Notes under the pieces: generated by a model
Seen by the model: the letters and a program-made list of their open reading frames with translations, nothing else
Told to the model about the DNA's origin: nothing
Database searches by the model: none
Shown: positions 1 to 64,000 of the stretch, piece after piece
Position numbering within the stretch: position 1 is the first letter of the stretch
How the letters are laid out: each line of letters begins with the position of its first letter
Source: Paraspadella gotoi
Taxonomy: Eukaryota > Animalia > Chaetognatha
Length of the DNA: 64,000 bases
Reading direction: 5' to 3'
Assembly (NCBI GenBank): GCA_051294375.1
Contig: CM119271.1
Location: forward strand, 6,635,632 to 6,699,631
Position numbers and translations under genes: made by a program

Positions 1-1905
1 AAGGGGCTGGAGTTTTCCACGTAGCAGGCAAATACGTCTCCGGGGACTGAGTTGGCGGTCGGTCGCGGGAATAAACGGTTCGAACCTTCAGTGTCGACCT
101 TTGACTGATTTTGTTTGCGCAAAAAGCGAAACTCGTAGAGCTGCTCGAGGGTAAAGGTCGACTTAACCGGAAGAAGGACCCAACCCTCGTTCTCCAAAAA
201 CATTCGCAGCTCATCCAGGCAAGCGCGATGATAATGCTTAAAATAATTGATGCTCTGCTTTTTCATTCCGTCCCTGAGCCCTTCACTTGACGAAGCCGGA
301 CAGAACTGAGCTCCAACGGCGATGAGAGTGTTCCCGATTCGTAGAACCTGCATAAAGTCGTCAAACTTGTACGAAGAAAGGTCCGAGGCCAGGAGGTAAA
401 CCTTGACCTTTTGCTGCACGTCTTGCCAAATGCGAGAGACGCCGTGCTCGAGTTTTTGGCGCACGTAGGTGCAGGACTCAGGCGAGACATCCGCCTCTGG
501 ACGGCGCGAGCTCGAGATTGTCGGCGGCGGGGGCGGGGGTGTACCAAAGCAGGGATCCTCGTTAAGGGTGGCGTCTTTAAGGGCGTCCTGGTGATCGAGT
601 ATACGAGTCTTGTACCATCCCATTACCGAGTCGTAATTTCTCAGGATGCCGAAAAGCTCTTTCGAAAGGTCGACAAGGCACGGTACAAAAGACTCGGCTG
701 GGATAAAACGGCACAAGTCACTGTACTGCTTTTTGCGAAAGTCGATATTGGATCCCGAATATTGAGACGAACAATACGACGATGACTGCGACGTCGACGA
801 CTGCGACCGGCTGGGACCAAAGGGATTGGAATAAGAATCATCCTCGCCCGTTGTCTCGAATGAACTCTGCGGATAGGCGAGTTCCACGTGTCCAAGTACG
901 ATATTGAATGCCAGGTTGTGGATAGTGCTGGCGAAGTGCATGAGCAATTGATCCACGGATGTCTCTGTCTTGCCCAGCATGGCGTAGGATTTTTGAAGCT
1001 TAGCAAATTCATCGCAGTCGAAGTGTTGAGGTATTCGACCAAGGGCGACGTCGAGACCCTCCTCGATCAATTCCAGTGTATCCTGCAGTTTGGAGCCCAA
1101 TTCGGCGATGCACTGGTGCTGTCGATGACGAAGGCTGGCGGCGCGGCAGTCGAGGCAGAGTTCGATGGCTCGGGCGTAATCCTCGGCGTCCACCATGGCC
1201 CGGAGAGCGGCGTCAGTGGCGCGTAGGCGTCGAATAGTTTTCAGCGATTCCAACAGAAATCGGAAACGAGATCGGCGCCGGGTTCTGGCGTATAGGCGTA
1301 GTGATTCTCCCGTAAAATCGTCGCGTGCGGCCGCGAGGGATCTGTAAGGTAAAAAAAATTTTGGCCAGAATAGATTATTTTTACAAAATAAAAAAATTTA
1401 AATAAACGTTCGTTCGATAGTCCTCACAAGGCTCATAGTCATAGTCATAGTCATACCTCCTCGACGAGGCAGCAACGGAAACGGCGTTCTTAAGCCCTTC
1501 CTGCAACTCAACAACACGGGCCAGCTCGTCCTGGAAAGCTGTGCTGTTCTGCAGCACAGCGTCGGAAAGCATTCGGCAGACCACGTCGAGTTGTTTGCGA
1601 AGCAGCGCCCGCCGCTCGGCGACTGCGTCTAGTTCCAGTGTTCCCTCGGCGGTGGCCGCCGCCGTTTCTTCCAACCCTTCCAACTCATGTCGGCCGGGGT
1701 CGGCGCCACCCTCCTCGAAGTATAACTGTGGTAGCGCCGATAGGAGGTCGCGGTCGACTTCGGGATTGGGTAATGGCTGACGGGGCGCCTCGAACCCCGT
1801 AAAAAATACGCCCGAAGAGTCAGCGTCTCGAGGTTCTGGTTCATCCTCGACCGAAGGTTGGGTCAGGTTTTCCACCAGGTTTTTCAGTTTTCGAAGGGCG
1901 GCCAT
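1..1905 (-). CDS. VPS50: VPS50/syndetin (CCDC132), EARP complex subunit; 5' part, runs off window
   Basis: ATG at 1905 (MAALRKL), intron ~1343-1456, then a long exon running off the window. It encodes KQSINYFKHYHRACLDELRMFLENEGW..LPVKSTF.LEQLYEFRF, which matches my recollection of the VPS50 sequence. Confidence 0.88.
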
Positions 1906-1953
1906 TAAATGGTCAATCGGATTTTTAAATTTTTTTATTTTGTTAAGAATTGA

Positions 1954-2508: not shown

Positions 2509-3090
2509 TCAAAGGCTCAAGACGTCGTAAGAGTTCCGTGGTTCGGCCTCGATCTCAATGACCTCGAGGTTTTTGGCCTTGGCGAAGGCGATCTCCTGCG
2601 TGCCCACTTTGCCCCTCGACCCGACGTTGACGACGGTGAGGGAGAAAGCGTCGTCTCGGATCCACTCGTCCGAGAGGTAGACGGCCGTCCCGCCGACGGG
2701 CCGCCCTTCCTTGGTCACGCCGCCCCACGTGAGGCTCGAATCCTCTTCGTAGGAAACCTTGGGATAGAGTAGGGCGACGTCGACGTGCGAGTCGATCTCC
2801 TGCCAGCACTGCACGGCCAGCAGCGGCATGCCGAACTTGTCCTTGAGTCGCTTCATAACGGCACCAAGGTCGGGCCGGTCCTCGATGCAGCTGTCTCCGC
2901 CAAAGGCCGCGAGCCAGGGTTTTCTAAAGGAGCGCACGATGGGATGGAGCGTCTCGCAGACCTTATTTAGCTCCTTGTACTGGAGCCGAGCGCCGTTTCC
3001 TATGAAAAGGTAGACGTCCTTGATGTTACGCTCGCGGAGGTAGGTCTTTAAGTCTGAGAAGGATCGCAGAATTAAGGGTTTGGCAGTCAT
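2509..3090 (-). CDS. Uncharacterised ~193 aa single-exon protein, predicted SLOG (SMF/DprA/LOG)-like Rossmannoid fold
   Basis: Intact GC-rich ORF (ATG 3090) with beta-strand/Gly motifs YLFIGNG, AAFGGD, WGG and C-terminal VVNVGSRGKVGTQEIAFAKAKNLEVIEI, resembling the SLOG G-G-x-G-T-x-x-E...A...V signature. Gene is well supported; fold call is tentative. Confidence 0.6.
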   Translation of the reverse strand: MTAKPLILRSFSDLKTYLRERNIKDVYLFIGNGARLQYKELNKVCETLHPIVRSFRKPWLAAFGGDSCIEDRPDLGAVMKRLKDKFGMPLLAVQCWQEIDSHVDVALLYPKVSYEEDSSLTWGGVTKEGRPVGGTAVYLSDEWIRDDAFSLTVVNVGSRGKVGTQEIAFAKAKNLEVIEIEAEPRNSYDVLSL

Positions 3091-3261: not shown

Positions 3262-4430
3262 TCAAACTTTAAACGAAATGCCTTGCATCTGCAAGGCACC
3301 GCCGTCGACTGAATTATCCGGAAGTCTAGAAACTAAAGCCTTGGGTTTTTGACCATCCTTGACGTGAAGGTAGGCTACGCACATGCTGGAGGTGGTGTGT
3401 GCCCACGTCAGTTCACCCGCGCCATGTTCCTTCGAGGTAGTGAGCACTAAGGCCCCGGCCTGTCTGGCCCCTTCGCTCTTTAAAAATCTGGAATTGAGAA
3501 ATTTGTCGTTAAACGTCCGAGTGACGGCCAGCGTCAGGTTGTTGCTAGAGATCGCGGCGTCGCCCAGTTCCTTCGCGAGAAAAGTCTTGACGAGTTGTTC
3601 TCCTCTGCCGGTCGTGCTGACGGCGACGCCCGCATCTCCGTCCGCCACCGCCCAGCATCCGCAACCGAAGGCCGCCGCCTGACCCACTCGACCCGGCTGC
3701 TTCAGCAGAACCCCGCCGCTGGAAACGCCGGAGGCGACGTTGCCGGATGAGTCAACGGCGCAGGCGCCGACCGTATCTAGAGGCGTTTCGGCCTGCTGGC
3801 GAGCGAATGCATCGGCCGCTAGTCGGAGCATGTATTTTTCGTGGGCCGCCTTCGCCTGAACGCTGACTAAAGCATCTTCATCGACGGTGTTTTCTCCAAT
3901 TGCCCTGGCCCACCGACAGACGGCCCCTCCTGTCAACGTCATCGGCGGCTCGCGGTCCAAACTCATCTTCCCCTTCATCTGAGCCGTGAGCAGACGAGAT
4001 GCCACGCGGACCGGATTCTTAACGCCGGACGCCGCCGAGACGGAAGCGAAGCTCAAACTACGACCGTCCATCAAACCAGCGTCGCATTCCACTGGAGAAA
4101 ATTATGTTTGCTAGTTTTGTTAAAAATGTTCTACTACTCAGTACTTAACAATTATACATTTTTCTTTAAGTCCTCACAGTCATATTAAGAAGAGAAAAAT
4201 AAATTCATACCTTTTCCATCGATCGTCAAGTTTGAACCAAAGCCGGCGTTACATAAGGGATCGTCTTCTAAAACCGTCAAAGCTTCAACCACTGCCTCCA
4301 CTGCGCCGCCTCCTTCAGACAGGACATTACCCCCGCTCACACAGGCTAGCTTGCTAAGTTTCTTGTATTTTGGCTCTTTGTCACGACTGTGATAACCAGC
4401 GCCTAAATGAACGCAAACGAATGTCCCCAT
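3262..4430 (-). CDS. TASP1: Taspase-1 (threonine aspartase 1), 2 exons (4430-4211, 4091-3262)
   Basis: FVCVHLGAGYHS, EDDPLCNAGFGSNLT, VECDA, autocleavage/nucleophile site LD/TVGA, SSGGVLLKQPGRVGQAA; GT-AG intron 4092-4210 joins the frames. Confidence 0.95.
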
Positions 4431-5035: not shown

Positions 5036-8000
5036 TTAAGGTTGAATGAAGACGCTGGCTTCTGTCTGGCCTTCGGTGTCAGAGGCGATGGTTTCGGGCG
5101 ATGGTAAGTTGGAGAGTTTGTTTTCTTTAGTCTCCGCTCCTAAAATTAAAGTTTGTTATAATGATTTAGAAGTCAATTAACGAATGACCACGAACGCAAA
5201 TCTAAATTGTCGTACACAGCTTGCCTGATATTGCATCTAAATCCACAGGCCAAAACCGAATTCTGAGCAAGGTGTAAACCAAGTAAAGCGCGCCAGTGAT
5301 AAAGGCAAAAGCGCTTGAGCAATAAAATAAGAAATGATAATTGGTCTTGGTTACGATGACGCCACCCAACATGCTTCCGATCCCTTTGGCCACGCCGAAG
5401 TGAACGCCCTTAAAAAATTTCAAAATATTGCAACTAATCATGGCATAAACAAATGAGACGAGACGTCACCTGCAAAATTCCCTGCATGGTTGCGGTGGTG
5501 CCAGGAGGTGAAACTTTTCCCGCGTAAGTGGAAGCAGCGGGAAACATAAGTCCGAAGGTGATGCCATGCAACAGCTCGATGGGGATTTGCAGCCAATAAT
5601 TTTGGACGACGGTATAAAGAAAAAACCGCAGGGACCACGCGAACAGCGCGAGGCACAAACATCCTAAGAGAATATCATATATTAAGCAAAAGCAACGACC
5701 ACCCCTACTCGAAGGAATTCTGCCACTAACCCGAATGAGATAAGAAAGACATTATTCTGCCCGAAAGAAACATCATAGGTGTCTCTGCCAGAAGACAGGC
5801 GATCGTGATGGAAAGACCAATAGAAAGCTCTTTAGCTCCCAATTCCAAGATAAAATACAGGAAAACGAATGCTTCCAGGACACCTGAAAATATAAATGAA
5901 ACAAAATTTTAAGAAAATTATAAAGTCACTCGGATTTTTTTTTGGTTTTGTTTAGTAATTTAGTAAACAATTTATCATCAACTTGGCATGTTAGGGTCTC
6001 AGTTTTATCAAACTCAAAAAAAATGTATTATTGGTGAAAAAAAAGGAGGATTTAGCTCGCCGTCCCACTCTCCCCATGCTCTTCCTCTTTTTTTTATCCT
6101 CCTGCTCCTCGGTATTTTGGGAAGCGTTTCATTCACTCGTTCTTACTCTCCGCGAAATATACATTGTAAAGAGTAAAAAGAGTAAAAACGAATAAAAACG
6201 TTTCTCCCTCTATTTACTAGGGCCTTGAATAGTAGAGCGTAGTGAAAGTTACAAACAAAAATTCTAAATGTCAATTATGAACAACATACCATCAATTTGT
6301 AAAAATAATTAATTTTATATTCTTCAATTTTCGCAATAGGCTATATTTATATATCGTACTATCCTTATAAAATCGAAAAATTTTAAAATAGGCTTTTCTT
6401 AATTTTGATTGCAGATTTAAATTCCTCGTCATAGGTTGATAAAAGAAAATATAAATCATTTTCAAAAATTCTTTCATTAAGTGGGTTAAAAATTTAAAAA
6501 ACTATATTTAATATATAAAATTTTAATTTTCCGCTTAAAATATAGGTTTTTTTATATTTGATCAACTTAATGAAATAATTTTTTTATATATCTTTATATC
6601 AAATTTTCAAATCTTCAAAAAAAAAGACAAGAATCCGCCTTTATACTTTTTTACACTTGAAAAAACTTCTTTCTCGACCAGTTTTACCGGTAAGCATTCC
6701 CATGACGAACATGACGACGAAAAAGATACCGACGTCGACGTGACAAACGATAACATGGACGACGTCTCGAACCAAATTCTCGCTGGGCTTCGAGGGGCTC
6801 ACGTTACGCAAGAAAAGGGAAGCGACGATGCACAAAGTTATCCAAAAGAAATAAAAGTAAAAGTAAACGTAAAAGGAGGAAAAGTGTTTAACGACGCAAA
6901 AGTCGGATCGGTGAAGGAAATAGGCCACGAGTCCGACCACCGTAGCGGTTGTGCCGAAACCGATGGATCCCCACACCTGAAGAGAGTTCAAGGGTGATTG
7001 TTGAATTTATAAACCAACAACAAACAAAACTACTATATTTTCTATGGGCGAAAAAAAAAGCCCTAACTGACCCGCTGCAGTCCGTACATGACTTGATCCT
7101 TCTCCACGACTTCCAGAGTTATGGCATCGACGAGGGGCATGACCGTGGCCACGGCAAGCGTGACCACTAACTGCAACACGAAGAAGGCCAAAAATGGGGG
7201 CGTGAAGAACTCCGTCTCCGGCCCCGGCGCCACTTGGAGCGCGGGTAAGCACCGCTTCTCCGTCGCCGCGCAGATCAATTGACACTCGATCCTCGACTCC
7301 GTAGTCGTCGTCGTCGTCGAGGAGAACGAGCAGTTGGAAGAGAAGTCGAGGGAAAAGTCATGTTCGCAGACGAAGCCGATACCAACGCCGTCGTCGTCCG
7401 AGTCGCTTCGTCGCGCCGAAAAAGTAAATGGCGACGTGGTGACGTTGAGTCGGGAGCGAAGGCGACAGGACGAAGGAAATTCTTCGAGGACTGTGTCGTC
7501 TGGACAGATGAGAGAGTTCTAAGGAAAAGCGAGATTGAAACATTACAAGGTAGTCCAAGGGATACATTGTGTAAGGGATGATATACCCTCGTATACATGT
7601 GAAAAGAACGATAAATACTCACCTCTAGCCCGCCCCGATTGTGACTTTTGCACAAAGGAAATTGAGATTCTTTACTCAGACAGCTCGATTCTGGGTTTGA
7701 GCAGGAGAGCTCGACGCCGCAGGGCAGCCTTGAAACGAAGGGCTCACTGGGCACAGCCAAGTGAAGCGCGTGGCCCAGCCCGTAGACGACCGTAGATATG
7801 ATAGCGATGGAGCGGTAGCAATGATACTTGTCGGCGATGCCACCTCGGGGTGAATGGTAGAAAAGAAGTTATATATTTTTATGTCATCATCAATGGAAAA
7901 CTGGTAAAGCATTAACAGAGAATAAAAAAATCTTGATCTTGATCTCGCTAGTGACTGACGCGATAACGAATTATTGGTGTAATAGTAATTGATTGATGTA

Positions 8001-9044
8001 ATTGTAATTGATTGATTGATGTAATTGATTAATTGATGTAATAGTTATTGATTGATTAATGTAATAGTTATTGATTATTAATGTAATAGTAATTGATTGA
8101 TTGATTGATTGATCGCCGGATACTACGCCGGATACTACATAATAATAATTGATTGAATGATGTAATAGTAATTGATTGATTGATGTCATAATAATTGATT
8201 GATTGATGTAATAATAATTGATTATTGATACGATAGTAACCAAATACTGATGCGATGATAACCAAATATTGACGCAATGATAACCAAATATTGATGTGAT
8301 AATAACCAAATATTGATGCGATGATAACTAAATTATTGATGCGATGATAATCATTCATTGATGCGATAATCATTCATTGATGCGATGATAATCATTCATT
8401 CATTCTTTGACAATAACAATCTTCTATCAAACATGAGCCAGTCTCCAGAACAAGAAAAATACTTCCATTGTAAAGCTACAATACTACAATGAAATATTCG
8501 AATAAAATTGGAAAACTAAATCATTATTAAAAGCTATTAAAAGTACTGCTAAAACCGTAAAATAAGACTACTATGAAAACTGTATAAAGATATGTATCAG
8601 ATATGAGAAATGGTCTAAACTACTACAAAATGTAAATGAGATTGAAGAACTCAATCTCATTTGAAATGAACCACAAATTATTCTGCGACAATTGATGCGA
8701 TGATAATCATTCATTGATGCAATGATAATCATTCATTGATGCAATGATAATCATTTATTGATGCAATGATGTGAAAACACAGTAGGAGTTTGCCCCCAAA
8801 CTACTATGGTGTCTTAAGTTTGGAACACAGAATTCCCAAGCAGTTCTTTTCACTCACCAGTTATAGGTCTGCTGAGAAATCCCACAAAGGCCATGACGCC
8901 ATAGATGATGCCGATATGAGCATTCGTGAGACCCATTTTGGCCATGAACGAGGGAATTATGGGGAACACACAAGCGACGCTCCCGAAAAATAAGAAGTTG
9001 TACAACTTGAGAGGCAAAAGAGTTTTGTTTATTTGCGGCGGCAT
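5036..9044 (-). CDS. MFSD6: MFSD6-like major facilitator superfamily transporter, multi-exon
   Basis: INKTLLPLKLYNFLFFG start, VDAITL..YGLQR|VWGSIGFG, IELLHGITFGL, TATMQGILQ|GVHFGVAKGIGSMLGG; exons joined by GT-AG introns. The last intron is probably GC-AG (5140-5224). Confidence 0.85.
7958..8770. repeat. AT-rich minisatellite (ATTGATG../ATTGATGCGATGATAA(C/T)CA units) in MFSD6 intron 1
   Basis: Degenerate tandem units at 7958-8402 and 8692-8770. Confidence 0.85.
8595..8690. repeat. Short dispersed repeat, copy 1 (inverted copy at ~44642-44725)
   Basis: gatatgagaaatggtctaaactactacaa.atgtaaatgagattgaagaactca...ccacaaattatt matches the reverse complement of 44642-44725. Confidence 0.8.
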
Positions 9045-9423: not shown

Positions 9424-12400
9424 CTACCAAACTCCTCCTCCTCCGTAACCACCGTAGCCGCCGTGATAGTTGCCGTAATATCGACCGTCCATCGCTCCTT
9501 TATTCCAACCCGAATTCCCCGAGCCGGGCGCAGCGCCTCCGTAGGGTCCCGACGCGTTCCCGCTCGCTCCGGGTCCTTGCTGACTTTTCGAGGCGTCTTG
9601 CCGCCCTCGCTTCTTAGGATCTTCCTCGCCATCTTGCATCCAAGTTTTCATCATCGCCATGGCCTGACAAAACAAAAATTTCATTTTTGTATTGCTTTAA
9701 GAAAGTTGTAGAATGGTGCAATAAAATTTAATTAGTCTAATTTTATATCAAAAGATTGATTCAGTGTGCAAGCATCAGCGTTCAATTAATGATTAACGAA
9801 ACAACATCGTAAAGTAAAATATTCTTTTAGATTATTTGCCGATATTTTACTAATAAATTTAAATGGCATATTTTTTTAAAATCACTATATATAGTCTTGA
9901 CTGTTTCAATAATTATATGGAAGAATTATAAATAATTATAACAATAATTTGACCGAGCGAGCTCACAACCACAACAATTTTAACATTAATTTGACCTTAA
10001 GACTTGAGTAAAGTCACTCAACCGAAACCTCGCCTTCAAAAGCGCGTTCACAAAAATGCGGGTATAACAAATCTCGATAAAAGAATGACTAACGGTTACA
10101 GTGGCTTCAGCCTAAAAAACCAACATTTAAAAAGTCACACCTATATGTTAAAAAGACTCCCGGTCCCGTTTATGTTGGCTTCGAGAAGAGATTTGGCAGA
10201 AAGACTCGACAAAATCTCAAAAGAAAATCAACTTGAATTTTTTTTTATGTTCAAGATTGAAGCAACTCGTGACGGACACAAACAATGTTTCACTACGGGA
10301 AGACATTCATAACGCTGACGATCCTCAATAATTTTATCGCGGGAGCCTACGACATAAATCCAAAAAATGAACCCGATGTTTTAGTGAACGACGATGACGA
10401 TGAAGATTTATACCACCGAGGGCGTTTAAGTCCTCGCTACTTTTTTCGAATCGGTCGCGAGGATTTCGTCGACGCACATGCCATAGAAGGTCTCGCAACG
10501 GACGTGGAGCAGGTGACGTCGCTTCCAGTGGTTAACGAGCGCGTCCTTTTTCAATGCGGAAAAAAATTTAAGATCGGTGGGAAAAGGTGCGATCGAAACA
10601 CTTGGGTGCAGGGAACAGTCTTATCCACGAAAGGCAACGAAGTCGAGGCTTTGACTAGAAACTGCCAGTTGAGAGAACGATTCTGGAACGAAGACACAGA
10701 ATACAATGTCGTAAAGTTCAACATAAGAGAACTGAGACGCGCGGATTCTAATAACTTCCGGCGCGATGTCGTCTGCTCCCGAGTCAACGTCAACATTTTT
10801 TACAGACTCCATCCGAACTGCGGATTCTTCAAGTTCGCTACGGTGTTTCCCAGCCAATCGTTAATAAAAGTGGAGTACGTCGAGGACCACGGAAGGTCGC
10901 AGATGATCCGTATACTGAATCAAAGTGATCCGCCAAAGTTGGTCCCAGATATCGTGCCGAAAGTCAAGGATCTCGAGAACTTAACAGAGGTTATTGTGAA
11001 ACAGGAGAGCTGGTCAGGGGAAGAGTGGACGGTCGGACAGTTGACGGTGAGCGAAGATTCCTATTATGAAGTGGTCGTCGAAGGATTGCGACAAGTGGTA
11101 TCGGTGGATGACAGAGAATACCTTCGAATTTTGCGGGGAAGAGTCATGACTTTCTGCGAAAATGATGAGAAGGAAATCGACGAAAATGACGTAAAAACTA
11201 CAACCTGGACTGAGTTGGACGAGGTTACGGAATCGCCGCTCTCACAAAAGCAAAATATGACTTGGATTATCGTCGTCGTCGTCGCAATCGTTATGTTTAT
11301 TTTCGCCGTCTTGATCACCGTCTGTTGTAAATTTATCGTTGAAAGGTGAGAACAAAATTTGTTTTGACGTGATTTTCATGCGATTCAGGTGAAAAACTTT
11401 TAAATGTTAAACAAATATATAGGAGGACTTCAACATCAAGAGTACAATCCGACCATTACGAAGAAATGAATCTGCCAGAATTGAGGGCCAAATCAAAAGA
11501 GGCAGAAGCCAAGAACGAGAACACGTATGAAAGTATCGAGTCGACATACGAAAATCCAAACATTGAAGCTAATATCTATAGCGAAGTCTCTTCCGAATCT
11601 GGCCAATATGAGGTACGAATTTTTCTAAGATTTTATACCAAAATATTACGAGTCTCAAGAACTTATTTCAGTTTTGTTAACGATGTTTTTAGCAATATAG
11701 AAGAGATAGGTCTATTCATTCCGTAGCGGTTCAGCAAGAGTACGCCGAGGAAGGAAACCTACCGAAAACTGACGAATATTATGGTAAGATAAAATCGAAA
11801 CCTGTACGTCCATTTTGAAATTACATATGGGTTGACTTAGTTTATTTTTTCTTCGCAGTTTACGACACGGACACAACAAATTACAAATGGAATGAAAAAT
11901 GACAAATGAAAAATGAAAAATTTGTTGTTTTTTTTTGGGGGGGGGCCGTTTATGAATAATTTTATATCGGGTAATTGTAAGAGATATAATAATATAATAT
12001 AATATAATTTTAGAGAATGCCCGATTATTAGTTATCTTAGTAAAAAAAATGTTTGTGTATTGTATTTAAAAATTTTAGGATAGCTGGCTGGAAATGAATT
12101 TAATAAGTGGCTAAATTAAATTAATAGTTTATTTATTATGATTTTGTTTTTATTTATGATTTATTTACTGCGGATTGTTTTATTTCGTCAATTTACGAAT
12201 ATAGCATTGTTTAACATCAAGCAATTTATGTACTTCTTTAATTCAAGCCAAAGAAAAATATAATTTATAATTTTATTGTATTGCATATGCAGTAAAGTTT
12301 CATAAAAAGAGTAGCGTATAAGAAGGCTACAGACTATATAAAAACAATAACTAAAATACCTAAAATTAATATACAAATTAAATAATTTTATTTGTGAACT

Positions 12401-18278: not shown

Positions 18279-19182
18279 CGTCCAGAAATCACCGGGGAAT
18301 ATCGTTAAGAAATTAGATTTGTTTAAATTATAAAGACAGCTGACGGGAATGAAAGAGGGTTGAGAAACATATAATTACGCCGTAGAATTTTTAATAAATT
18401 ACAACTGGAATATAGTATATAGAATTTTATCACGAAGTGGGACAATTTGGTATTGAATGCCTTAGAAAAGACACTGCTATCTGCTTTGATTTAACATATA
18501 AATCTAAATTTCGTAAAACGACTCATAAGTCTGATTCGTGATAGAATATTTCACAGAAAAATAAAATTTATTACTAAAAATTAAATTTAACTTAAAACAA
18601 GGACGGTATAATAAGTTTTGAAAACACCGAGTTTTAATAAATACAGTTTTCCTATTAGCTATTAGCTATTTTTCTTATTCAACATTCTATTTTTCTAAAA
18701 CTTGAACAATCAACATTTAATTAGGACCCTTTAAAGGTTTTAACTAGTGTTTTACTACCCGCTTTTTGGAGAAATAACTTGAGAGCATAATTCAAGTCCC
18801 GACAGCAAAAGTGATCAATGTATACAACTACGTACGTAACTATTTATGGCGTACTATTAGATCCGATTAAGATTTGCCCGAAACGGAAAAAATAAAACTC
18901 TCGTGCTGTTCTGAATACTAAGTACGAAATAAATTTATCACCCTTGATCACAATCCAGCTAAGCGGCCACCAAAATGGTAAACGAAATTGTAAAACAAGC
19001 AGAACGTAAATGGAATTGAAGATCTTTCGATTAGTGAAACGAAAGTCCACGGGTACTAAACAGCGCTAAAGCTCCGGAACAATAAAAAGAGCGTCGAAGG
19101 TGTGAGACCTGACCAGAAGTTTCACGCATAAGAAAATAGATCATCGTAATCTCAATTTTAGCAGTGGGGAGTTAGAAAAACT

Positions 19183-22221: not shown

Positions 22222-22699
22222 GGACAACGTTAAAAAACATAAAGCTTGAAAAATTGATCAAGCTCAACAATTTTTTTTTTTTGCGAAAAAAAAAGAAGTC
22301 AAAAATCTGTATCTTCGTTCTCCAAATCGACGATAAAGTCAAACTCGTCTTTAGTTAATGGCTGCACCGAGAGTCGTGCCTTGGTGAAAAGAGCCAAGTT
22401 CTTCAACGGCCCGCCCGTGCGCTTGTGCTTTTCATGTATCGACTTTAGTTGGTGCANNNNNNNNNNGGACAACGTTAAAAAATATAAAGCTTGAAAAATT
22501 GATCAAGCTCAACAATATTTTTTTTGCGAAAAAAAAAGAAATCAAAAATCTGTATCTTCGTTCTCCAAATCGACGATGAAGTCAAACTCGTCTTTAGTCA
22601 AAGGCTGCACCGAGAGTCGTGCCTTGGTGAAAAGAGCCAAGTTTTTCAACGGCCCGCCCGTGCGCTTGTGCTTTTCATGTATTGACTTTAGTTGGTGCA
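22222..22699. other. ~235-bp near-identical duplication flanking a 10-N gap (22457-22466); probable uncollapsed haplotype overlap of the THYN1 3' end
   Basis: 22222-22456 matches 22467-22699 with a few substitutions and small indels in A/T runs. Confidence 0.88.
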
Positions 22700-23333: not shown

Positions 23334-23363
23334 AGTATTTTTTTTTGGTTGATCTAAATAGAA

Positions 23364-23400: not shown

Positions 23401-23454
23401 TCATACATAAAATAGAAAAAGGGGGGGGATTGGATGGGGGGTGTTAATTTCTAT

Positions 23455-24177: not shown

Positions 24178-24455
24178 ATTTAACGATTAGTTCTTTTAAC
24201 GCCTGAATATAATTTTGCAAGATGCAAGCCATTAAATGAAACGAGAAAAGTAACAAGAGTGTAAAAACATCTTCAGAGACAATCATATTCTCGATATTTC
24301 TCGATCGGGACAATTAGTAATTAACCGCTCGCGAGTGATGATCGTGTGGAATCAGGGAAGGGAAAAGACTAAATAACAATAATTATAACAGGAGAGAAAT
24401 CAAAGATAAAACGCAACTTGAGTATAATTGTCGAAAAGTGGGGGGAGCAGAAAGG

Positions 24456-51834: not shown

Positions 51835-54800
51835 TTAGTCTATAATATTAGTGCTGGAACTCTGGTGACATGGAGATGTTGAGTGTGCGTGCTTCTGGTT
51901 ATGACCAGGCTGTTCGTTTCCATTACCGCGTTGTTCATTAATTCCAATAGAAGATGTTGAATTACGTAAAGTGCTGTTTCCCCCTGTTGGGCTCGGTATC
52001 AAAGTTTCTTGCTGGGCTTGTTGACTAGAACCAACCACACCTCCAGTTGCGCCTCCTTCAACTTCGTTATCTGACCCTACAAAGTCAGTTGATTCAGGAG
52101 GACCCCGAGAAGATCCCTCAGAAATTGCACCTTCACCATCTTCTTCGGCACATAATTCAAAGGCACGCGCCAAAGTCATTCGTGCCGACTGAGACCTTTC
52201 TAAATAGTAACCATTTGATGTTTCATTTGATTGGACTGGGGGGTTCCAATTATTAGCATACTGAACATTTCCTGTGTATGGTCGGCGGTCGAGCTCATCA
52301 TTTAACCATTCGACTGCCCACGTCCATTTTCGTTTTAAATCGCCTTGAGAGTGCAACATATTAGAGGCAGGAGTGCAATTTGAAAACAAATTGACCATCA
52401 TCTTTATGCATTGATAAGCACGTTTCTGATAATGATTTTTCGACTTTTGTATTGTGTCAAATAGTCCATCGCGGTCGTCAGGAATTCCTTTTAAAGCATT
52501 ATGAATGCGGTGCTGCTGCCACGAATCATCAATCAGCAGCATCTGATAAAGTAGGTCCATATATGGGCGCAATTCGTAGGTGTAAGAGAAAGCAACCTGC
52601 CAAAGCAATTCACTCAAAACTGATGACGAAAAATGGGGATTTTCCCAGCAGCAAAAGCGTAGAAGCTTCACAGTTTCCTCACTAGCATTACAATCCTCAA
52701 TGACTTTCTTAACATAAGTGTTGCGTCTGAAGAGTATTTCATTAACTTGAGCTTGAATTGGCATTAATGGAGCAGACAGAGTTGGATCCCCATGGGGATT
52801 TTGTAAAGGTGTGGCATTAGGTTGTGAACTTTGCATGACTCCAGATACGTCGCAGCATCTCACTAGAAGAGAAACCACGCTGTACAACTTTCCTAATTCA
52901 GCATATTGATATTTTATCGGGGGTCCCGGACCTTCATCAAGAGCAACAAGCATGAACATAACAGGGACACCCAGTTTCAGGAGCTGCAACCTTTCAGTAA
53001 CTCCAAGGTTTGCATATATGTAAAAAAAGTGAAAATACTGAGACAAAGTCCTTCCATGTTCGGCGACTTCTTTTTTTAATAAAGCTAAGACTGCAGATAA
53101 AATGTAATCAGACAAAGTTGCATTTGGATGTTCCATACCAAGTAGTTCAGGAGCATCGTTTGGCGGTGAGCACGGTCCATCTTGAAGAGAATAATGAGCT
53201 AAAAACCATATAATCTTCACAAACGCCGACCGAACTTCGGAAGTAGGACATTCGAGCATGTACTCAGCAAATCGTTCTTGATGCGCAAAAAGTACGCTGT
53301 TGGCAAACCAAGATCTCACATTTCGTGAACACTGCAAATGAATTCGAATGGCATCGTACCATTCCGAGGCGCTTCCTCGAAGAGTTTTTTTCGTATGAAA
53401 CCCCACAGAAAACAAAAACTTTGAAGCTAACTGAATGCTTATCATTGCTAATTCTTCAGTTTCAAGTGAACTAAGATCAGTTGTTACGGGTTGTGCTGTA
53501 TTTTGCTGAATAAAAGGAGCATTGCAAGTGATCAACTTTTTCATAAATTGAAAAAACTCTAATGAGAACAAAGTCTTGTTGTGCATGAACTGAATATTTT
53601 TTCGTCTTACACACCTTTCTATAGGTGAAGGCATTTTTGGATGGTAGGGTGGTTGAATTACTGAAGTTGTCATTGATATATCAGATGGGCAATCATCCAA
53701 TTTCAAATTTTTAAATGCTTCAGCAAGAGCTAGAGATGCTGGAGTATCATTACTTCCTTCAGACAATTCATCTTCTCCTGGCAGTTGTTCATAGAACAAA
53801 ATGTAAGCATTCCACCACCTTTTTTGGCGACGACATGACATTCTTTTCAGCATATGATCAAAAACCTCACCCATATACTCTCCTCCAAACCATTGATTTT
53901 TCATCTCGTCTTCGTCATCAAATTTACATTCGGAGACTTCGCCATCATCAAATTTATACCATTTGAGTTCTCCATTTGAGACTTTTCCATCTAAACCTAA
54001 ACTACCCTCTGCTGGTCGATGGAGGATAAAAGAATAATAATGTCCCCCAGAAGCTTGGCCAGAATGGACAACGACGCCAACTAGACGATATTTAGTGGAC
54101 TGACTTCCACTATCAATGGAAAACGGCTCGCCATCATGTATCCATTCGCCCATAGAGGTAGCTGATAATCCTTTTTCCGTGTATGGTTCCATATCCAATT
54201 CCTTAGGAAATTCAAAATAATCATTGAATTTAATAGCCGTTTCGTGTTCCCAATCATAATCAAAGCGTTTCAGTTGAATGGCCAAATACGGAGGAAGTTT
54301 CTTTATGCACAAGCGTTTGACAGTATCCACTTTTTTGTCACACTTTTCACAATGGTAAGCATTGGCACCCTCCAGCAGATCCCCTTTTACATACTGCTCC
54401 AAAGAACTTAAAAGATCATGATGATTTCTTATGTCCACATTAAGTGTCGTAAAAGATTCTTCGCGAGAATATCTATGTGGACATCCTTTACAGATCTTTT
54501 GATCAGCAAATGAACCCCCCATAATTTTAGAAAGGATTGCAGGTTGCTTAACTAATTTTAATGCTTCGTCCAAAGAATCTACTAAGGAATTGAAAAATTC
54601 TAATGCATCATGTTGCTCTCTTAAGTTTACAGGCTCTCCCCATAGCTTAAAGTGACGCCAAAAGCCTTTAGGTACATAAAATTGAAGTTTTGAGGTGGCA
54701 AGATGACCAAAAATCATTTGAACGTGTTTTAACACACCAAGATTGTATTCTTTTCTTTCTTCAGTGGTATTTCTTTCTGAACGTATTTCTTCTTTATCTT

Positions 54801-57800
54801 CATTTTCTTCTTTATCATCTCTCTCATCACCACTGAGATCTTCATCAAAATCTTGCACCGCTCCCTCGACTTGTAATATTCCTGTTCGAATTTCATCTAT
54901 CATAAATAGCTGTTGTAAAACCGAATTCATATAACACGTTGCGCCAGCATTTTTAAGACCAACAAAACCATTATGAGGTCGAGGTCCGACAGGTGGTAAA
55001 TACTCCCATTCATTCAGAACTGCTTGAGATCCATTAAAATACATATCAGTCAAAAGTTCAGCTAACATCCTCAAATTAGCCACACATCCGGTACATAATG
55101 AAACGAGCAATTCAAAAGCAGCAGTAATAGTTAAAGGAGTAGAACAAACTGGAATTGCATGATCGTCGGGAAGCTCGCCATCACTTTTTCTGCATTGTAA
55201 AACTATTTTCGAAGCGGGAAATATAAAATCTTCAACCAGTTGCTTAATCAGTTGATGCCCTTCAGGATCAGACCCGATCTTATACTTTAATTCTGATGTT
55301 TGAAAAGAAAGTAACTCTTTAGTTACGCCCAAATGGCCTTCTAAGAGGGCTTCTTCTACACCAGTAACTCCAGTTTGAATTACAGTATTTCTGACTTTTC
55401 CTAACCATTCGACCTCCTTGTTCAACTGATTAATATTAGTTGGTACAGACACTTTTGATTGACATGCATAACTTAGAAGTTTACAAAGAATTTGAAAATA
55501 TTCATGGCTTTGTTTTGCGTTTTCTTTTACCGTAGTGTCAAGTACCGTAAAGAGCAAAGTAATGAAAAATAAGAGTGGCCTTTTCTCTGCACCACTTTTA
55601 GTGGCAATTAAATAAAGTTGTTCAGATGCAGATGCTCTGACTGTTCTAGAATTGCATAGCAAAATCATATCAACAATGAAACACTGCCAAGATTTATCAC
55701 CTTTACTAGTTAATTGATCTAAAATATCTGGACAAAGAGCGAGGCATATTGTTAGAACTTCCAAGGATTCCTTGGCAAGGTTGTTGTTAATTGGCTCGTG
55801 TTGGCCAGAAGTAGTTGATCCCCAACTGGTAGTCATTCCATCACTCGGTAGATTTTCATAGGTCTTATGAATATCATCGTTTGATGCCTGCAGCAAATGA
55901 AGTGAACCCGAAGCAGATGCCCAGGCTAGTTTTACAATGGCTTTCACAGCATTTAAATCAGGCAAAACATCTGTCACGGAATCTGACAAAGATTGACCAA
56001 GGCGACTAACAACAGATCTCAACATCATTTCACTTGAAGGAGAGGGCATTTGATGAAGTGCTTGCTGCAAAACAACTGCCCTGCCATGCTGGGCTGGAGA
56101 AATATTGATAGACGCGGAAACGTTACCCCCTCCAGAGTGATGTTGTGCACTGTCAACTGCAGTAACTGCTTCAGCCACAACTTGAACCATAGCATGGCCC
56201 ACAGCAGAAAGCAGTATTTTAGCTATTTTTAAGATGATGAGATAAGCTTGTCGTCTTATAGAGAGATCAGCAGAAACCAAATAATTATTTCTTGTTATCA
56301 TAGTCAAAATTGCTGAAACACCACCACTTCTCATGAAAGCTCGTTGAAACTCAAATGCTTCTTCAGAGAGAGGATTTAATGCAGGCATTAGAAGAAGGTA
56401 AGTGACTTCAAGATGATACAATGCTTGTGACGGAGAGGAACAAAAAAATAAAGCTTCCATTTGGGTGGAGGATCCAGGATCAACAGGAAGGTAAGGCTCA
56501 GAGCACACAGATTTTAAATTTTCAACAGTTTTCATATCAGCCGGCATCAACTTTAACAATGCCATCGCCCCTTCTCGTACTTTCGGTATTTGAAGTTGAG
56601 AACCTAAGTCAGCAAGCTGGAATAAGAAGGTAGCATATCTGGAATTCGCCGCCATTATTACCCCAGGCAAACATTTTTCAGCTTCAGCATTAGGACCGTC
56701 ATAGGTGTTTCTAGGACTTCCAGCAGTTGAACTATCAGAACTGCTGTCAGGAGATGAAGGCATGTTGGAACCAGCCTGAGACAATTTAGCCGTTATGAGA
56801 GCTTTATTACTATTAGGTCCATGTGAGAAAACATCAGTTAACACCTGCGAAATCAATTTTTTATCATCATTCATATCGATTGCATCACCATTAATAAACA
56901 AGTCAACTTTTACATGAGTAGCATTAGCTTTTAATCGCGTTAGTATTTGGCGACGAATAGATCCAACAGTTTCATTTGCATGAGACCAAAGTTCAATATC
57001 ATCAAATTGACGTCCTTGATTTGGGAATCGAACAATTAAAGTAAAATGTTTTCCTCTACAGGCCCTGCCAAGTGGTAAAATAGCTCGCTCTTCATGATAA
57101 TCATCATCACATTCTGATATATACTCATGAAGGACCGTCAAAACTCTAACAATAGAAACGGTTTCTTGATTAATATAGTCTATTTCCTTATCTTTTGACA
57201 ATATTGTAACGGTGTCATAACAAGCTTTTAGCCTATCCATACAAGAAGCCACAAAATCTTCATGAATATCCACTTGATTTGGCTGTAATCTTGGACCCAA
57301 GTTTGTGTATATCTCTTTTAAAAGACTGATAGCTTTTTCAGCTACTTCTTCTTGACTGGCAATGACAACGCGCCAAATATAGTTGAGACCAATCAATTCT
57401 AAATCATCCATCATATGAGCTCTACGTTTCTGTATCAGCTTTTGTTCTTTGGCATTGACAGCTTTGAAAAAACGTTCAAAGCATTTTATCCCACTTTCTG
57501 TGAGGTAAACAGGGTCAAGCTGTAAAATGTTATTTTCAAAAAAATCTCGATTAATGTCAGGATCAAGATCTGGCTCATCTCCCATTAGCTTAGAAAACCA
57601 CTTAAAACACGCTTCTCTATCTGTATTATAAACAGCGTTTTCTGCAAGACAAGTCCATATTTGCCTTGCTTGTGGAGCACATAACCACAACTGACCATCT
57701 TTAAGAAGAAACCTCAAAAAATTAAGGCGTTCTTGAACTTGTTGAATGTGGTTATATCTCCCATCAGGTAAAACATCTTCAGGCAAAGCTTGTGGATTAT

Positions 57801-60066
57801 CCATGTGATAATGTCTTGCCCTATTCATGTAAGTTGTTAAATTTTCGGCAACGAGAGTGACTAGGGAATGCGTATTTTGTAGTTGAGATATAACTTCGTG
57901 TCTGTAAGATACATGAGGACTTCTTTGTACCGACTGCCCATAATTTTGAGGAGCTTCTGTAAATAAAGAGCAGATCTCTTTGATTTGCTTTAAAGCAGGT
58001 ATAACCCATTTATCATTCCGCAACTCATCCACAAACTTATTAATCCAAGTCATTTTCTGTGTGTCTCGATCTTGAGAGCAACTGTAATCAAGTATCTTTA
58101 CATGTGCAAGAAGAGCTTGATCCATTAAATCCGTAGGGGCATCGTCACTATGAGCAAGACTCCATAAAAGACCCAAAACTTTATGCGCCATTATTCCATC
58201 TTTGTCATCTTCTGCTAATCTTCTAATCAATTCAAGAAGAGCCTCTCTTTGCTTAGTTCCTTCAACCGCCCAACTACTCTGAAACAACTCAAAAAGATGA
58301 TCAAGTTGTTCAGAAGCAAAGTCCCAGGCAAGCTTAGCAAGAAGATCGTGAACATTTTTTACAATTGCTTCGTGTTTCCCATTCTGTGCAGCCCACAAAG
58401 CATCGAGGTCTTCAATTGTCAAGGCTTTTTCTTTTATTACAAAGCGCAAAATTTTTTCCAGTTTTTCAACGTACTGCGGTTGATGTAATGAATCACGAAG
58501 AACTATCGAAAGAACTTTATTTTCTTGAAGCCATTCAGCCATTCGATCAGCAGTCAACCATTCGTCATCCTCCACAGCAGAATGACGATGAGTGTAGTAA
58601 GAAACTCCAGTGATTACTTTGTTGATTTCGTTCAATGCATTCATTTTTCCATTGAAAGAGGAAATTTGAAGAAGTCGTAAAATCATCTTTAATCGAAACA
58701 TCTCTAAACTCTTGGCTTTTTCTTCCTGATTGGGAAGACGGGTAACTAGATTTTTTAGATATTTGACAATCGATGAGACAGAATCGTTCTTGGATTCATT
58801 CTTGGCTTCCTTTTTCAATTCTTCGTCCGTTAAATTATCAAGAAAAGAAGGCACTAACTCCACTATCGGCATGAAGTAGCGCCTGACCGTGTTGGGCGTC
58901 AAAAGTTCGAAGCATAGACCGAAGGGTCGAATCAAAGCAGAGATGACAGGAACAGATAACCTGGTTCCACTTGTAAATCTATCCAAAAGAATCTGAAAAC
59001 CTCCCATGGTCCCGAACTGGTTAATTAGATCGACGAGCCATCCACGGGGACTCCGCAAATCCAAAGGACGGGCGAATAATTCGTCGTCATTGAGATTGTG
59101 CTTGGGAGGAACCGTCTCGCTGGTTCTGCTACCGTTATATTGATGGAATTTGCTTTGAGGGTTAAGAACAATAGCGAGAAGCTCAAGAAGCGGGAACCAG
59201 TCGTCATGAAGCTTTGCCACACACAATTCAATGAGCTTTTCTGCATTTCGCTGAATGCATCGGTGTATTTCAAATTTCCACCCGTGAACGGCGTCGTCCG
59301 TGAGAATCTTAGTAAAAGAAATCGTTAAACCTTCCCTGAAAAATCGTTGACAAGGCTCACTCCTAGAATCTACTCCGGCTTTACAAAGTTCAATGGCGGC
59401 GTTCAGCAAAATTTCAAGTTCACCCTTGGGTAAAACCGGTACGATCCACCGAGGTCTGTTGATCATGTCGTCCAGCTTCGCCAACTCTTGTACCGGAAAC
59501 GGGGGATCTTTCATGCTCTGAAGCTCTTCAATTCGGCGAGCGGCTTCAGCAAGCGCGTCTTCTTGAACAACCTCCGTCGACGCGTTTGCGTTGGAGTTGC
59601 TGGTCTGGAGTGCAGGGGCTGGTGCCGGCAGCGACGAAGGCACCGAGACTCCACCGGGAGACAACGAATGTTGCTGTGGCTGCTTGGTGATCGGTGGCGT
59701 CGGTGTGGTGCCACGAGTGCTGCAGCCGGGCGTCGAAGCTGTGGGTGTCGTCGATGCTGAGGACTGGGAACTCGACGGGTTAGAGGTTCCCAGGACGATG
59801 GTTTCCCCGGAGGAAACGCCCGCCGATCGTCCCAAGGACGCATCGCCCGCATTGGAGGACGACGATGCAGACTTGTTTAGCGCGGACCGGGAATCGCGCT
59901 GTTCGTTCGGCGAAATGTTAAGACGCTCTTGCGATGAGCTGGGAGTTGGAGCAGCCCCGGAAGTGGCCTCCTCCGTCAGCGGATGAGTCGAGGCTGAGGA
60001 CCCCCTTCCGCTCGGCGCGCCATCAGAGGCATCCGTTGGCAAAATCTTTTCGTCCTCGTCATCCAT
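51835..60066 (-). CDS. USP9X: Ubiquitin C-terminal hydrolase USP9X/fat facets, single 8.2-kb exon (2743 aa)
   Basis: [24 protein letters not shown], Cys box [16 protein letters not shown], His box [26 protein letters not shown]. Confidence 0.98.
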
Positions 60067-61344: not shown

Positions 61345-64000
61345 CTATGCGAAGGATCCGTCGCCGTCTCTATTATCCTCTTCATCGTCATCTTCGTCTT
61401 CCAGAGTCAGCATGAGTTTCGCCGGTCCGTGCCCGTCGTCGGAGGCCGATCCGGCGCCTAACTTGATATTGGGGTCGGACTGCGGCAACAATTTTTTGTG
61501 TTCAGGCGTTGGTGCGATCGCCTGATGGTCGGGGAAAAGGGTCTCGTAGACGGGGTTGCAAAAATTAGTAGATCTCGGAGCAGCGACGGGGGCGGCGGCG
61601 TCAGAGTCGGCAAAGGAGGTTCGATCCTTATCGGCGCCGATATCGGGTCGCGGCGCGGACTCAATGAATCGGCGTCTGTCGGGATCGAGGACGAAAGCGG
61701 AATCGAGTGGTTCCGGACCTTCTTCTCCGTCGTCGACGTCCTTCATGTACATCGGGTTTGAGATTTCGACGTTAGGGTTGTCGTGCATACGAAAGTGTTG
61801 GAATGGTCGGGTTGACGGGTAGCGTCGGCGAATTAAAACGAGAAGAGCGACTAGAGCGATCAAGAATACGACAACGATAGGAATAGCGACGGCGAGTCCC
61901 AATTGCGTCGGTGACCATTCGTCGGGGGCACGTGTGCCAGGATGGGGGCCTTCGGATGTTCCAACTTTGTTCTGACAAAAATCTCCGTCGTATTCCGGCG
62001 GGCAACTGCATATCCCCTTCCTGGTACAACTACCTCCGTTGAGACAAGCCTTTTTGCACTGACGATGCAGTGACGTCTGACACAAGGGTCCATCAAATCC
62101 CTCGGGGCACTTGCACCGAGACTGACCAACGCAAGTTCCATTGTTTTTGCACAGACATGGAGAGATTTCGCATTGTGTACCTCTGAAAGATATTGGACAG
62201 AGGCAACGAGGGCCATTCTCTTCGCGTTTACATGTGCCTCCGTTCTTGCAATAGTTTTGGCACCTGTCAATGTTGCATCTTTTACCCGTAAATGAGGGTA
62301 GGCAATCGCATCTGAGGTCACCGATTTCGTGATGGTCTATACTACAATTCCCGTCATTGTGACAATAATCTTTGCACGCGTCCGTGTCGCACTGTGGGCC
62401 AGTCCATCCGGCAAGACATATACATACAGGCTTATTGGAAACGATCTGGCAAACTCCGCCGTTACGACAAAGTCCATGGCAAACGTCCTCTTCACATTTG
62501 GGCCCGTTAAATGCGGGCGGACAAGAGCAACGTGGGGTGCCGATTGAGTTGGAAGATTCATCACGCTGACATATTCCGCCGTTGGCACAGAACCACTCCA
62601 CACACTGCTCGCAACGAGGACCCTCAAACTTGTTTTGGCAATTGCAGGAGGGCCTATCTTTTTTCACCACGCAGTCACCGCCATTCTTGCAATAATTCTT
62701 GCAAGGATTTTTGTTTTTATTTTGACATCGGTGTCCTCCAAATGAAAAGCGACACTTGCAATGAGGCTGGCCCAAAGCGTCAATACTGCACGTACCCCTT
62801 TGGTTGCAATAGTTGAGGCACTTCCAATTTTCACACCTCGTCCCGTTGAATCCTGGCTGACAATCGCAGAACACTTGCCGTTCCGGTTGACTTGGCACAC
62901 GGCATTGGCCTCCGTTGTGGCAAAGACCGTAACAACGATCATTCTCGCAACGAGGTCCCGAGAAACGGTTTTTACACTTGCACTTGGATCGACCAGACTG
63001 ATCCTTCTGACACGTGCCACCATTTTGGCACGGGTTGTCTTCGCAAGTCAGTCCGTCGGAAACGCAGACAACTACAGTAGAATCCGGCACGGCCCTCTTG
63101 CCCTCAGGGCAATTGCAGGAGGAGCCATTTTTAGCCATGGATATGCATATTTGATCAGGGTCGCAGGTTGAAGGGAGACAATGGTTAATGAGATTCTTGT
63201 TCTGAGAATTTTCCTGAATTAAAATAATGTCGCCGATTTGTGTGAGATTCCGCAACAAGTAAACCGGGAGGCCAAAACCGAATTTGTGCATCTTGAACAA
63301 GTTATGCGTCCTGTCAGTGGTCACGTAGAGATGATCCTCAAACACACGAATGCCAGAAGGTTGATCGCCTCCAAGAGGGAAGCTCTTTACTACTTGGCGT
63401 CCGGTTCCATCGAGAGCAAGACTCTCTATAGTGCGCGCCTTAGGGTCGGCCCAATAAAGCCGACCATTGGGTCGATCTATGGTCAGGTCAGCAGGTCGCA
63501 AGAGACCTTTTTGCACTAAAATTTTCCTGCCCCTTCCGTCTAGGAGGGCGGCCTCTATCTTCGGGAAGTGGCCGAGGTCTATCCAGTACATCCAACCCCC
63601 CTCTGGATCGACGACTATCGATTCGGGTCGCGTCAAGCTTCCACTAACGATTATCTTTTTAAAGCGATTCTTGTCAAAAGTAATTGCTCGAATAGTTCGA
63701 CTGCCGGCCTCCGTCCAATAAACGATCCTGGATACCCAGTCAACGGCAATTCCTCTGGGATCATCCAATCCGCTGACGAGCGTCTGCGTCTCGTCAAAAT
63801 CCGAATCGTCGTGATCGCGACGACGACGTCGATCTCCCTGCATCTCAATCGGACGGGCTTGCTTGGGCGGCGGTATGGGCCGAAAGGAAATGGTCCCGCT
63901 GTGGTGATCCGTCCAAAATAACACGGGCCGATCTGGATCGGACATGTCCACATCGACGGAGGCGATCCGCGTCGACGCGTTCCCCTGAAACAAACGCGAG
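61345..64000 (-). CDS. LRP1: LRP1-like LDL receptor family protein, 3' part (YWTD propeller, EGF repeats, TM, NPxY tail)
   Basis: YWTD-type repeats, ~10 EGF repeats, TM helix, VEISNPMY and TNFCNPVYETL (LRP1-type NPxY motifs); ORF is open at the window edge. Confidence 0.85.
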   Translation of the reverse strand, partial: SRLFQGNASTRIASVDVDMSDPDRPVLFWTDHHSGTISFRPIPPPKQARPIEMQGDRRRRRDHDDSDFDETQTLVSGLDDPRGIAVDWVSRIVYWTEAGSRTIRAITFDKNRFKKIIVSGSLTRPESIVVDPEGGWMYWIDLGHFPKIEAALLDGRGRKILVQKGLLRPADLTIDRPNGRLYWADPKARTIESLALDGTGRQVVKSFPLGGDQPSGIRVFEDHLYVTTDRTHNLFKMHKFGFGLPVYLLRNLTQIGDIILIQENSQNKNLINHCLPSTCDPDQICISMAKNGSSCNCPEGKRAVPDSTVVVCVSDGLTCEDNPCQNGGTCQKDQSGRSKCKCKNRFSGPRCENDRCYGLCHNGGQCRVPSQPERQVFCDCQPGFNGTRCENWKCLNYCNQRGTCSIDALGQPHCKCRFSFGGHRCQNKNKNPCKNYCKNGGDCVVKKDRPSCNCQNKFEGPRCEQCVEWFCANGGICQRDESSNSIGTPRCSCPPAFNGPKCEEDVCHGLCRNGGVCQIVSNKPVCICLAGWTGPQCDTDACKDYCHNDGNCSIDHHEIGDLRCDCLPSFTGKRCNIDRCQNYCKNGGTCKREENGPRCLCPISFRGTQCEISPCLCKNNGTCVGQSRCKCPEGFDGPLCQTSLHRQCKKACLNGGSCTRKGICSCPPEYDGDFCQNKVGTSEGPHPGTRAPDEWSPTQLGLAVAIPIVVVFLIALVALLVLIRRRYPSTRPFQHFRMHDNPNVEISNPMYMKDVDDGEEGPEPLDSAFVLDPDRRRFIESAPRPDIGADKDRTSFADSDAAAPVAAPRSTNFCNPVYETLFPDHQAIAPTPEHKKLLPQSDPNIKLGAGSASDDGHGPAKLMLTLEDEDDDEEDNRDGDGSFA

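Follow-up and report, generated by a model that had tools for sequence, protein, structure and literature searches.

Whether a long row of unrelated genes on one strand is transcribed gene by gene or as polycistronic units is the question raised by a 64-kb stretch of DNA (positions 1 to 64,000, hereafter the window), in which 19 head-to-tail genes occupy the minus strand. The first-pass annotation of this window had proposed either unusually long animal operons or trypanosome-like directional gene clusters. The analysis presented here indicates that the array probably comprises a single operon or a few operons lying side by side, in which roughly ten genes, from acid phosphatase (ACP) to MFSD6, form a core that would be co-transcribed and cut by spliced-leader (SL) trans-splicing. 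The phylum, the leader identity of the extra bases at TELO2, co-transcription and the unit boundaries are the components of this reading that we infer.

The array was defined from six-frame open reading frames (ORFs) compared with Pfam. On the minus strand, 33 of the 111 ORFs scanned gave a match, and these matches account, collinearly, for 18 of the 19 genes; on the plus strand, none of 150 ORFs did (150 of 174 listed, the remainder being short overlapping frames). From high to low coordinate, the genes are an LRP-type receptor, USP9X, DCP1, SNX1/2, CASD1, a folate-receptor-like gene (FOLR), ACP, PARL, STYX, AKAP10, MED19, THYN1, AVL9, TELO2, TDP-43, MFSD6, TASP1, a SLOG-like gene and VPS50. 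STYX, AKAP10 and MFSD6 are presumed labels on matches to DSPc, RGS and MFS_1_like, respectively. The run is open at both window ends, which bears out the earlier statement of 19 consecutive minus-strand genes continuing beyond both edges. No Rfam family and no tRNA was found in the 64 kb.

The 18 stop-to-ATG spacers range from 94 to 1725 nt, with a median of 604 nt, and 11 of them exceed 500 nt. In the same order, their lengths (in nt) are: LRP-USP9X 1278, USP9X-DCP1 949, DCP1-SNX1/2 758, SNX1/2-CASD1 1725, CASD1-FOLR 545, FOLR-ACP 606, ACP-PARL 1163, PARL-STYX 94, STYX-AKAP10 1648, AKAP10-MED19 278, MED19-THYN1 121, THYN1-AVL9 455, AVL9-TELO2 904, TELO2-TDP-43 318, TDP-43-MFSD6 379, MFSD6-TASP1 605, TASP1-SLOG-like 171 and SLOG-like-VPS50 603. 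The spacer lengths given in the first-pass annotation match these recomputed values, including about 212 nt for THYN1-AVL9, where a 235-nt duplication (95.7% identity) flanks a gap of 10 N and its removal reduces the spacer to 210-212 nt.

The chance of 2^-18 that had been attached to the run holds for a single chosen start and overstates the surprise at genome scale. Runs of at least 19 genes are expected 0.04 times per 22,000 genes at a co-orientation rate of p=0.5, and 0.34 times at p=0.566, the rate implied by the operon fraction of the chaetognath Paraspadella gotoi (2,910 linked pairs, 22,082 genes). Run length alone is only modestly beyond chance; what carries the case is the shortness of the spacers together with the ends seen in RNA. 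The figure of 0.34 speaks for another explanation, in which compact tandem genes mostly have their own promoters (some of them within the upstream 3' untranslated region, UTR) and are trans-spliced one by one from short outrons, with operons of no more than two to four genes, the run being partly due to chance. The many spacers above 500 nt point the same way, as does the report that the majority of trans-spliced P. gotoi genes are non-operonic (PMC12460157; for this and all papers named below, the available part of the text is meant). Relatives of PARL and MED19 are also mostly found on single-gene-sized contigs, where mature operon mRNAs would likewise be found.

Sequencing evidence consisted of assembled contigs from nine runs matching the window, none of them recorded as RNA. 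In minus-strand genes, contigs of run X9 skip 13 GT-AG introns, seen as 12 joints and one loose end in MFSD6; they also skip three introns of a nested plus-strand gene, and seven of the skipped introns are retained in the DNA runs X1 and X5. Since X9 splices introns that X1 and X5 keep, it was taken as RNA. According to summed depths, the intron stretch 9663-9987 has no X9 cover, so that DNA carry-over is low. No contig of run X10, from another organism, matched the compared region. The comparison with RNA covers 8790-34400 of the window, that is 10 of the 18 junctions, and concerns the following features.

32711..32712, minus strand: AG acceptor of ACP; an RNA contig starts at 32710 with nine unaligned letters
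31318..32688, minus strand: acid phosphatase (ACP; His_Phos_2), first gene of a four-gene RNA contig
29105..30154, minus strand: PARL rhomboid protease (Pfam, RNA contig)
28174..29010, minus strand: STYX-type pseudophosphatase (presumed label; DSPc), 94 nt behind PARL
26619..27435, minus strand: 817-nt GT-AG intron from STYX stop to AKAP10 ATG (joint in X9, absent in the DNA runs X1 and X5)
24456..26525, minus strand: AKAP10-type RGS protein (presumed label; RGS match), RNA to 24203
24203..24204, minus strand: AG acceptor of MED19, whose G is the last base of the upstream contig (abutting junction)
23455..24177, minus strand: MED19 (Pfam, relatives)
23354..23355, minus strand: AG acceptor of THYN1; RNA contig end at most 2 nt away, from distance-to-end values
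22542..23333, minus strand: THYN1, EVE domain (Pfam, RNA contig)
22222..22699, no strand: false duplication around the 10-N gap, an assembly artefact (self-comparison, 95.7% identity)
19183..22086, minus strand: AVL9 (Pfam, RNA contig), RNA contig continuing to 18424
18342..18423, minus strand: AVL9-TELO2 intercistronic stretch without RNA contig cover (depth arithmetic)
18340..18341, minus strand: AG acceptor of TELO2; RNA contig with nine non-templated letters, a candidate leader 3' end
15372..18278, minus strand: TELO2 (Pfam, RNA contig)
9424..15053, minus strand: TDP-43 (Pfam, RNA contig), RNA contig continuing to 9101
5036..9044, minus strand: MFSD6-type transporter (presumed label; MFS_1_like), ATG at 9044 or 9062

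One X9 contig of 7175 nt runs from 32710 to 24203 and contains ACP, PARL, STYX and AKAP10, thereby crossing three junctions. It includes both the 1163-nt and the 94-nt spacer, with the 817-nt STYX-AKAP10 intron spliced out. The contig starts on the base after an AG, and its end is the G of the AG located 25 nt before the MED19 ATG. As this intron, which separates the stop of STYX from the start of AKAP10, is removed by cis-splicing, the acceptor of AKAP10 serves in cis; cis- and trans-splicing can use common acceptors (PMC12582326). The same splicing event joins a 46-codon upstream frame that ends at the AKAP10 ATG.

Further downstream, the AVL9 contig ends at 18424, and about 83 nt beyond this end the TELO2 contig begins, at the AG of 18341-18340. 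The contig of TDP-43 extends as far as 9101 and so stops 38-56 nt short of the MFSD6 ATG. The three long spacers compared with RNA (904, 1163 and 1648 nt) are either filled with RNA or left with a gap of 82 nt. Altogether, RNA extends to or past the acceptor of the next gene at four junctions; at three others it ends at most 90 nt short of the following acceptor or ATG, so that untranscribed space for promoters is lacking there. The listed contigs leave uncovered the 5' end of MED19 (24133-24202) as well as some of the spacer sequence of THYN1-AVL9 and of TELO2-TDP-43, and these stretches were counted neither way; in the FOLR-ACP spacer the contig signal was swamped by repeats. Within TDP-43, an unspliced X9 contig over an intron (12830-14187) and a joint at 12590-12666 with an extra 15-nt piece suggest intron retention and alternative splice sites.

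Such a pattern could also be an artefact, the gene order resulting from misassembly or the bridging RNA from DNA carry-over or chimeric contigs. The false duplication flanks a 10-N gap that is unbridged by the listed DNA contigs, and the label of X9 as RNA is only a program's guess. However, DNA contigs from two studies (X1: 14500-18284 and 27314-30984; X5: 22603-26725 and 28923-32852) bridge most junctions within 14500-32852, and X9 not only splices introns but also leaves intron and intercistronic stretches uncovered. An artefact is thus considered highly improbable.

Acceptors were evaluated with a matrix derived from 15 cis introns that have RNA support, scoring the best AG within 100 nt before each ATG and calling it strong when its score was at least the lower quartile of true acceptors. 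Strong acceptors precede 10 of the 18 ATGs, whereas among control windows from non-coding sequence 20 of 119 contain one (Fisher p=0.0008), and among opposite-strand windows one of 18. The matrix-best sites 18340 (TELO2), 23354 (THYN1), 24203 (MED19) and 32711 (ACP) coincide with the four RNA contig ends. Acceptors are weak or absent at USP9X, CASD1 and TASP1.

The TELO2 contig carries, beyond the AG, nine non-templated letters, TAATAAAAT (plus strand). No exact upstream source was found in the window, nor any near match followed by GT within 18 kb when two mismatches were allowed. Together with the AG, the letters are identical to the SL2/SL4 3' end at 8 of 11 positions, and they may stem from a leader form not yet published. 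Of the common non-templated leader looked for on RNA 5' ends, the ends listed yielded one candidate, the nine letters at TELO2.

Operons in P. gotoi were defined as same-strand genes whose transcripts are less than 250 nt apart (PMC12460157). Under this rule, ACP-PARL, PARL-STYX and STYX-AKAP10 are bridged by RNA, and the RNA of AKAP10 extends to the acceptor of MED19. Coding distance suffices for MED19-THYN1 (121 nt) and THYN1-AVL9 (210-212 nt), and RNA ends for AVL9-TELO2 (83 nt) and TDP-43-MFSD6 (38-56 nt). Eight junctions between ACP and MFSD6 are therefore linked through RNA ends or coding distance. The remaining one, TELO2-TDP-43, with 318 nt from stop to ATG, is likely to fall under 250 nt once UTRs are counted, and ACP to MFSD6 is likely a ten-gene chain. 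The proposal of operon-type transcription is supported to that extent, for the middle of the array; a single 19-gene unit is considered unlikely. Across these nine consecutive junctions, separate promoters would find no untranscribed room except inside upstream transcripts, and compact genes mostly driven by their own promoters are for this reason considered rather unlikely.

The host of the window is, with high probability, a chaetognath, judging from protein similarity. MED19 has five relatives at 81-88% identity, compared with 50-70% for named animals, and forms with them a long-stemmed clade (SH-aLRT, an approximate likelihood ratio test, 100; quick tree of 121 rows). One of the five, P0005, begins with LSSFNLFK, the peptide that chaetognath SL2.0 encodes directly after its in-frame stop (Table 3 of PMC2481426). 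Such a leader-peptide start was found in this one of 315 stored proteins. The relatives of PARL and of the SLOG-like protein contained no leader peptide, and no second gene confirmed the placement of the host by MED19. The USP9X search gave matches at 71-73% only, mostly from vertebrates, and did not place the host; no MED19-related locus was found in metagenome contigs.

Among 120 loci with the SL2 pattern, no orthologue of the window genes was detected, apart from one weak RRM match. Of the 77 SL2-capped plankton contigs examined from these loci, five have two long ORFs and three have two separate Pfam-confirmed genes head-to-tail, so that junction-spanning RNA is not peculiar to the present locus. 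The three pairs are a glutaredoxin-like gene and a kinesin, 55 nt apart (L007), RPL10 and RPS16 (L050), and RPL10a and RPS8 (L072); no leader remnant was found between the genes of these pairs. Tandem copies of the SL2 RNA gene, 695 nt apart, were observed in a record other than that of the window, L062 (180-330 and 880-1010), in which the leader end TTTAAA is followed by a GT donor.

Several points weigh against a trans-spliced operon in the window. Eight of the 18 junctions lie outside the RNA comparison, and TELO2-TDP-43 and THYN1-AVL9 are unbridged among the contigs listed. The RNA comes from a single run and consists of assembled contigs, and a multi-gene contig is not equivalent to one molecule; overlapping UTRs or read-through would look like a bridging contig. 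The chaetognath grouping comes from one protein, MED19. About half of the P. gotoi genes are trans-spliced and 18% are operonic (PMC12460157), so that trans-splicing alone is no proof of an operon. Among the listed contig ends, TELO2 is the one leader-like end, as the nine letters of ACP are undisplayed. This end finishes in AAG, whereas the last three bases of SL2 are AAA (117 of 117 terminal contigs, as well as the SL gene locus L062), and thus matches no published leader.

In the proposed mechanism, RNA polymerase II would read through the short spacers. The upstream mRNA would be polyadenylated 0-90 nt ahead of the unpaired AG acceptor of the next gene, and a leader would be trans-spliced onto the downstream mRNA at this acceptor. 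USP9X and CASD1, whose acceptor scores are near zero although moderate AGs occur 140-380 nt upstream, and which lie behind two of the three longest spacers, are candidate unit starts; the long spacers before them would be the likely restart points, and internal promoters are possible. The mechanism itself, operons with leader splicing in arrow worms, is already known, and it is the length that may be new.

In a more extreme version, one promoter beyond the window would drive at least 19 genes, and long trypanosome-like one-way clusters would be the rule in chaetognath genomes. This agrees with 64 kb free of opposite-strand genes outside introns, with every spacer being below 1.75 kb and with the RNA found in the three long spacers. 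It also agrees with a second chaetognath locus, a 158-kb bacterial artificial chromosome (BAC), for which the plus strand carries 14 of 14 host genes (24 rows of Table S5, PMC2481426). This count leaves out nine transposon, recombinase or unlabelled rows and one row without orientation, refers to SwissProt-matching models only, of which two rows may be one gene, and comes from a BAC selected because it bears an operon. All four minus-strand rows of the BAC are transposons. The same version is called into question by the missing strong acceptors within 100 nt of USP9X and CASD1, by an expressed antisense gene within the array, and by the report that half of the P. gotoi genes are not trans-spliced, that the longest operon has nine genes and that distal regulatory regions exist (PMC12460157). 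Taken together, a single promoter for the whole array is unlikely.

The antisense gene resides in a 2740-nt intron of TDP-43.

10138..11902, plus strand: nested antisense gene coding for a 461-aa predicted single-pass membrane protein, with three spliced introns (RNA joints) and expression in X9

No Pfam family was detected for this protein at E <0.05. As the gene is spliced and expressed, the window is not one-way throughout, and the earlier description of a one-strand window stands for all 19 non-nested genes but not for this one, which would need its own promoter. In kinetoplastid directional gene clusters, unrelated genes follow one another in the same orientation over long runs, a leader resolving their transcripts; separately transcribed opposite-strand genes are absent and cis introns nearly so. 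In the array, by contrast, the antisense gene is expressed and 16 cis introns are spliced. The co-oriented run has 19 genes and is open at both ends; the kinetoplastid type comprises tens to hundreds. Membership in that type was rejected because of the expressed antisense gene and the many cis introns. Every trypanosome gene is described as polycistronic in the SLIDR paper. In kinetoplastids every mRNA is trans-spliced, in contrast to about half of the genes in P. gotoi (PMC12460157). Of the initial proposal, operon-type transcription resolved by trans-splicing is supported for the middle of the array, by the four-gene contig, the acceptor ends and the TELO2 end. T-over-A skew was also tried as a marker of untranscribed stretches and discarded, since spacers resemble introns and the signal is too noisy.

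Published chaetognath operons resemble the array in combining unrelated housekeeping genes head-to-tail with a poly(A) site beside the downstream acceptor. The abutting AKAP10-MED19 junction is similar to the RPS14-PCNA operon of Spadella cephaloptera, in which 3 nt separate poly(A) site and acceptor; further clustered, co-oriented BAC genes were remarked on already in 2008 (PMC2481426). The published operons use several leader types, none of which exactly equals the TELO2 end. The longest operon of P. gotoi has nine genes, including ribosomal, ubiquitin and proteasome genes, a maximum that follows the article text and could be altered by the operon list in Supplementary Table 1 (PMC12460157), whereas the array likely has ten or more genes and no ribosomal gene. 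Operons of up to 6 genes in Ciona (PMC2760879), 11 in Oikopleura (PMC4122922) and 9 in Schistosoma (flatworm candidates; PMC12582326) are likewise SL-resolved polycistrons with abutting or short intercistronic junctions, but belong to other phyla with other leaders. In the array, junctions that abut (about 0 nt) occur together with others spaced by 83-87 nt, within a 19-gene one-strand run. Long one-strand runs are not treated in the available text of PMC2481426 and PMC12460157 (no match to 'co-orient' or 'same strand' in the latter), and operons are not mentioned in the available part of bioRxiv 10.64898/2026.06.08.730799. A literature search, with subscription journals mostly outside its coverage, returned no account of long one-strand gene clusters in chaetognaths.

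The genes flanking the core chain are the following.

61345..64000, minus strand: LRP-type receptor, 3' part, continuing off the window (Pfam Ldl_recept_b, EGF)
51835..60066, minus strand: USP9X, single ORF, possible operon start (Pfam; the 100 nt next to the ATG lack a strong acceptor)
49452..50885, minus strand: DCP1, ATG choice uncertain as 50976 is open too (Pfam)
42839..48693, minus strand: sorting nexin 1/2, multi-exon (Pfam PX and Vps5 pieces in order)
34629..41113, minus strand: CASD1, multi-exon with predicted first exon, possible operon start (Cas1_AcylT pieces in order)
33295..34083, minus strand: folate-receptor-family gene (Pfam)
3262..4430, minus strand: TASP1, taspase (Asparaginase_2)
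2509..3090, minus strand: SLOG-like gene, 171 nt behind TASP1 (relatives, no Pfam match)
1..1905, minus strand: VPS50, 5' part, continuing off the window (Vps54_N)

The SLOG-like protein gave 125 matches, with a full-length relative of 193 aa at 72% identity, and no Pfam match. One of its relatives is named, from a dinoflagellate transcriptome, and its atlas matches to giant-virus and bacterial clusters all score below 0.9 and are leads only. USP9X (8.2 kb), AVL9, TELO2, ACP and PARL are intronless single open frames alongside intron-rich genes. Their vertebrate orthologues are multi-exon. In the ACP-PARL spacer, a 70-aa frame (30429-30638, minus strand), unspliced in the X9 contig, resembles the C-terminal membrane segment of ACP (score 67, best of 1000 shuffles 45) and may be either a duplicate remnant or an alternative 3' exon. 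Two repeat families, one at 32915-33108 and 43502-43682 and the other at 7950-8770 and 26770-27050, occur in spacers and introns, and both attract very high contig depth.

A ten-gene chain would exceed the published chaetognath maximum and come near the animal maximum. Two unrelated chaetognath loci now display unbroken one-strand runs, with all 19 non-nested genes here and all 14 host genes of the BAC. It is conceivable, although doubtful, that chaetognath chromosomes are organised in long one-way clusters of 15-20 or more housekeeping genes, with few promoters and very long polycistronic transcripts cut by leader splicing, in a trypanosome-like layout. As tentatively, such a layout might reach about twice the longest reported animal operon and have been hidden by fixed 250-nt rules. 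Should one-way runs prove general across the genome, animals would be able to evolve far in the direction of gene clusters that have few promoters and are controlled post-transcriptionally.

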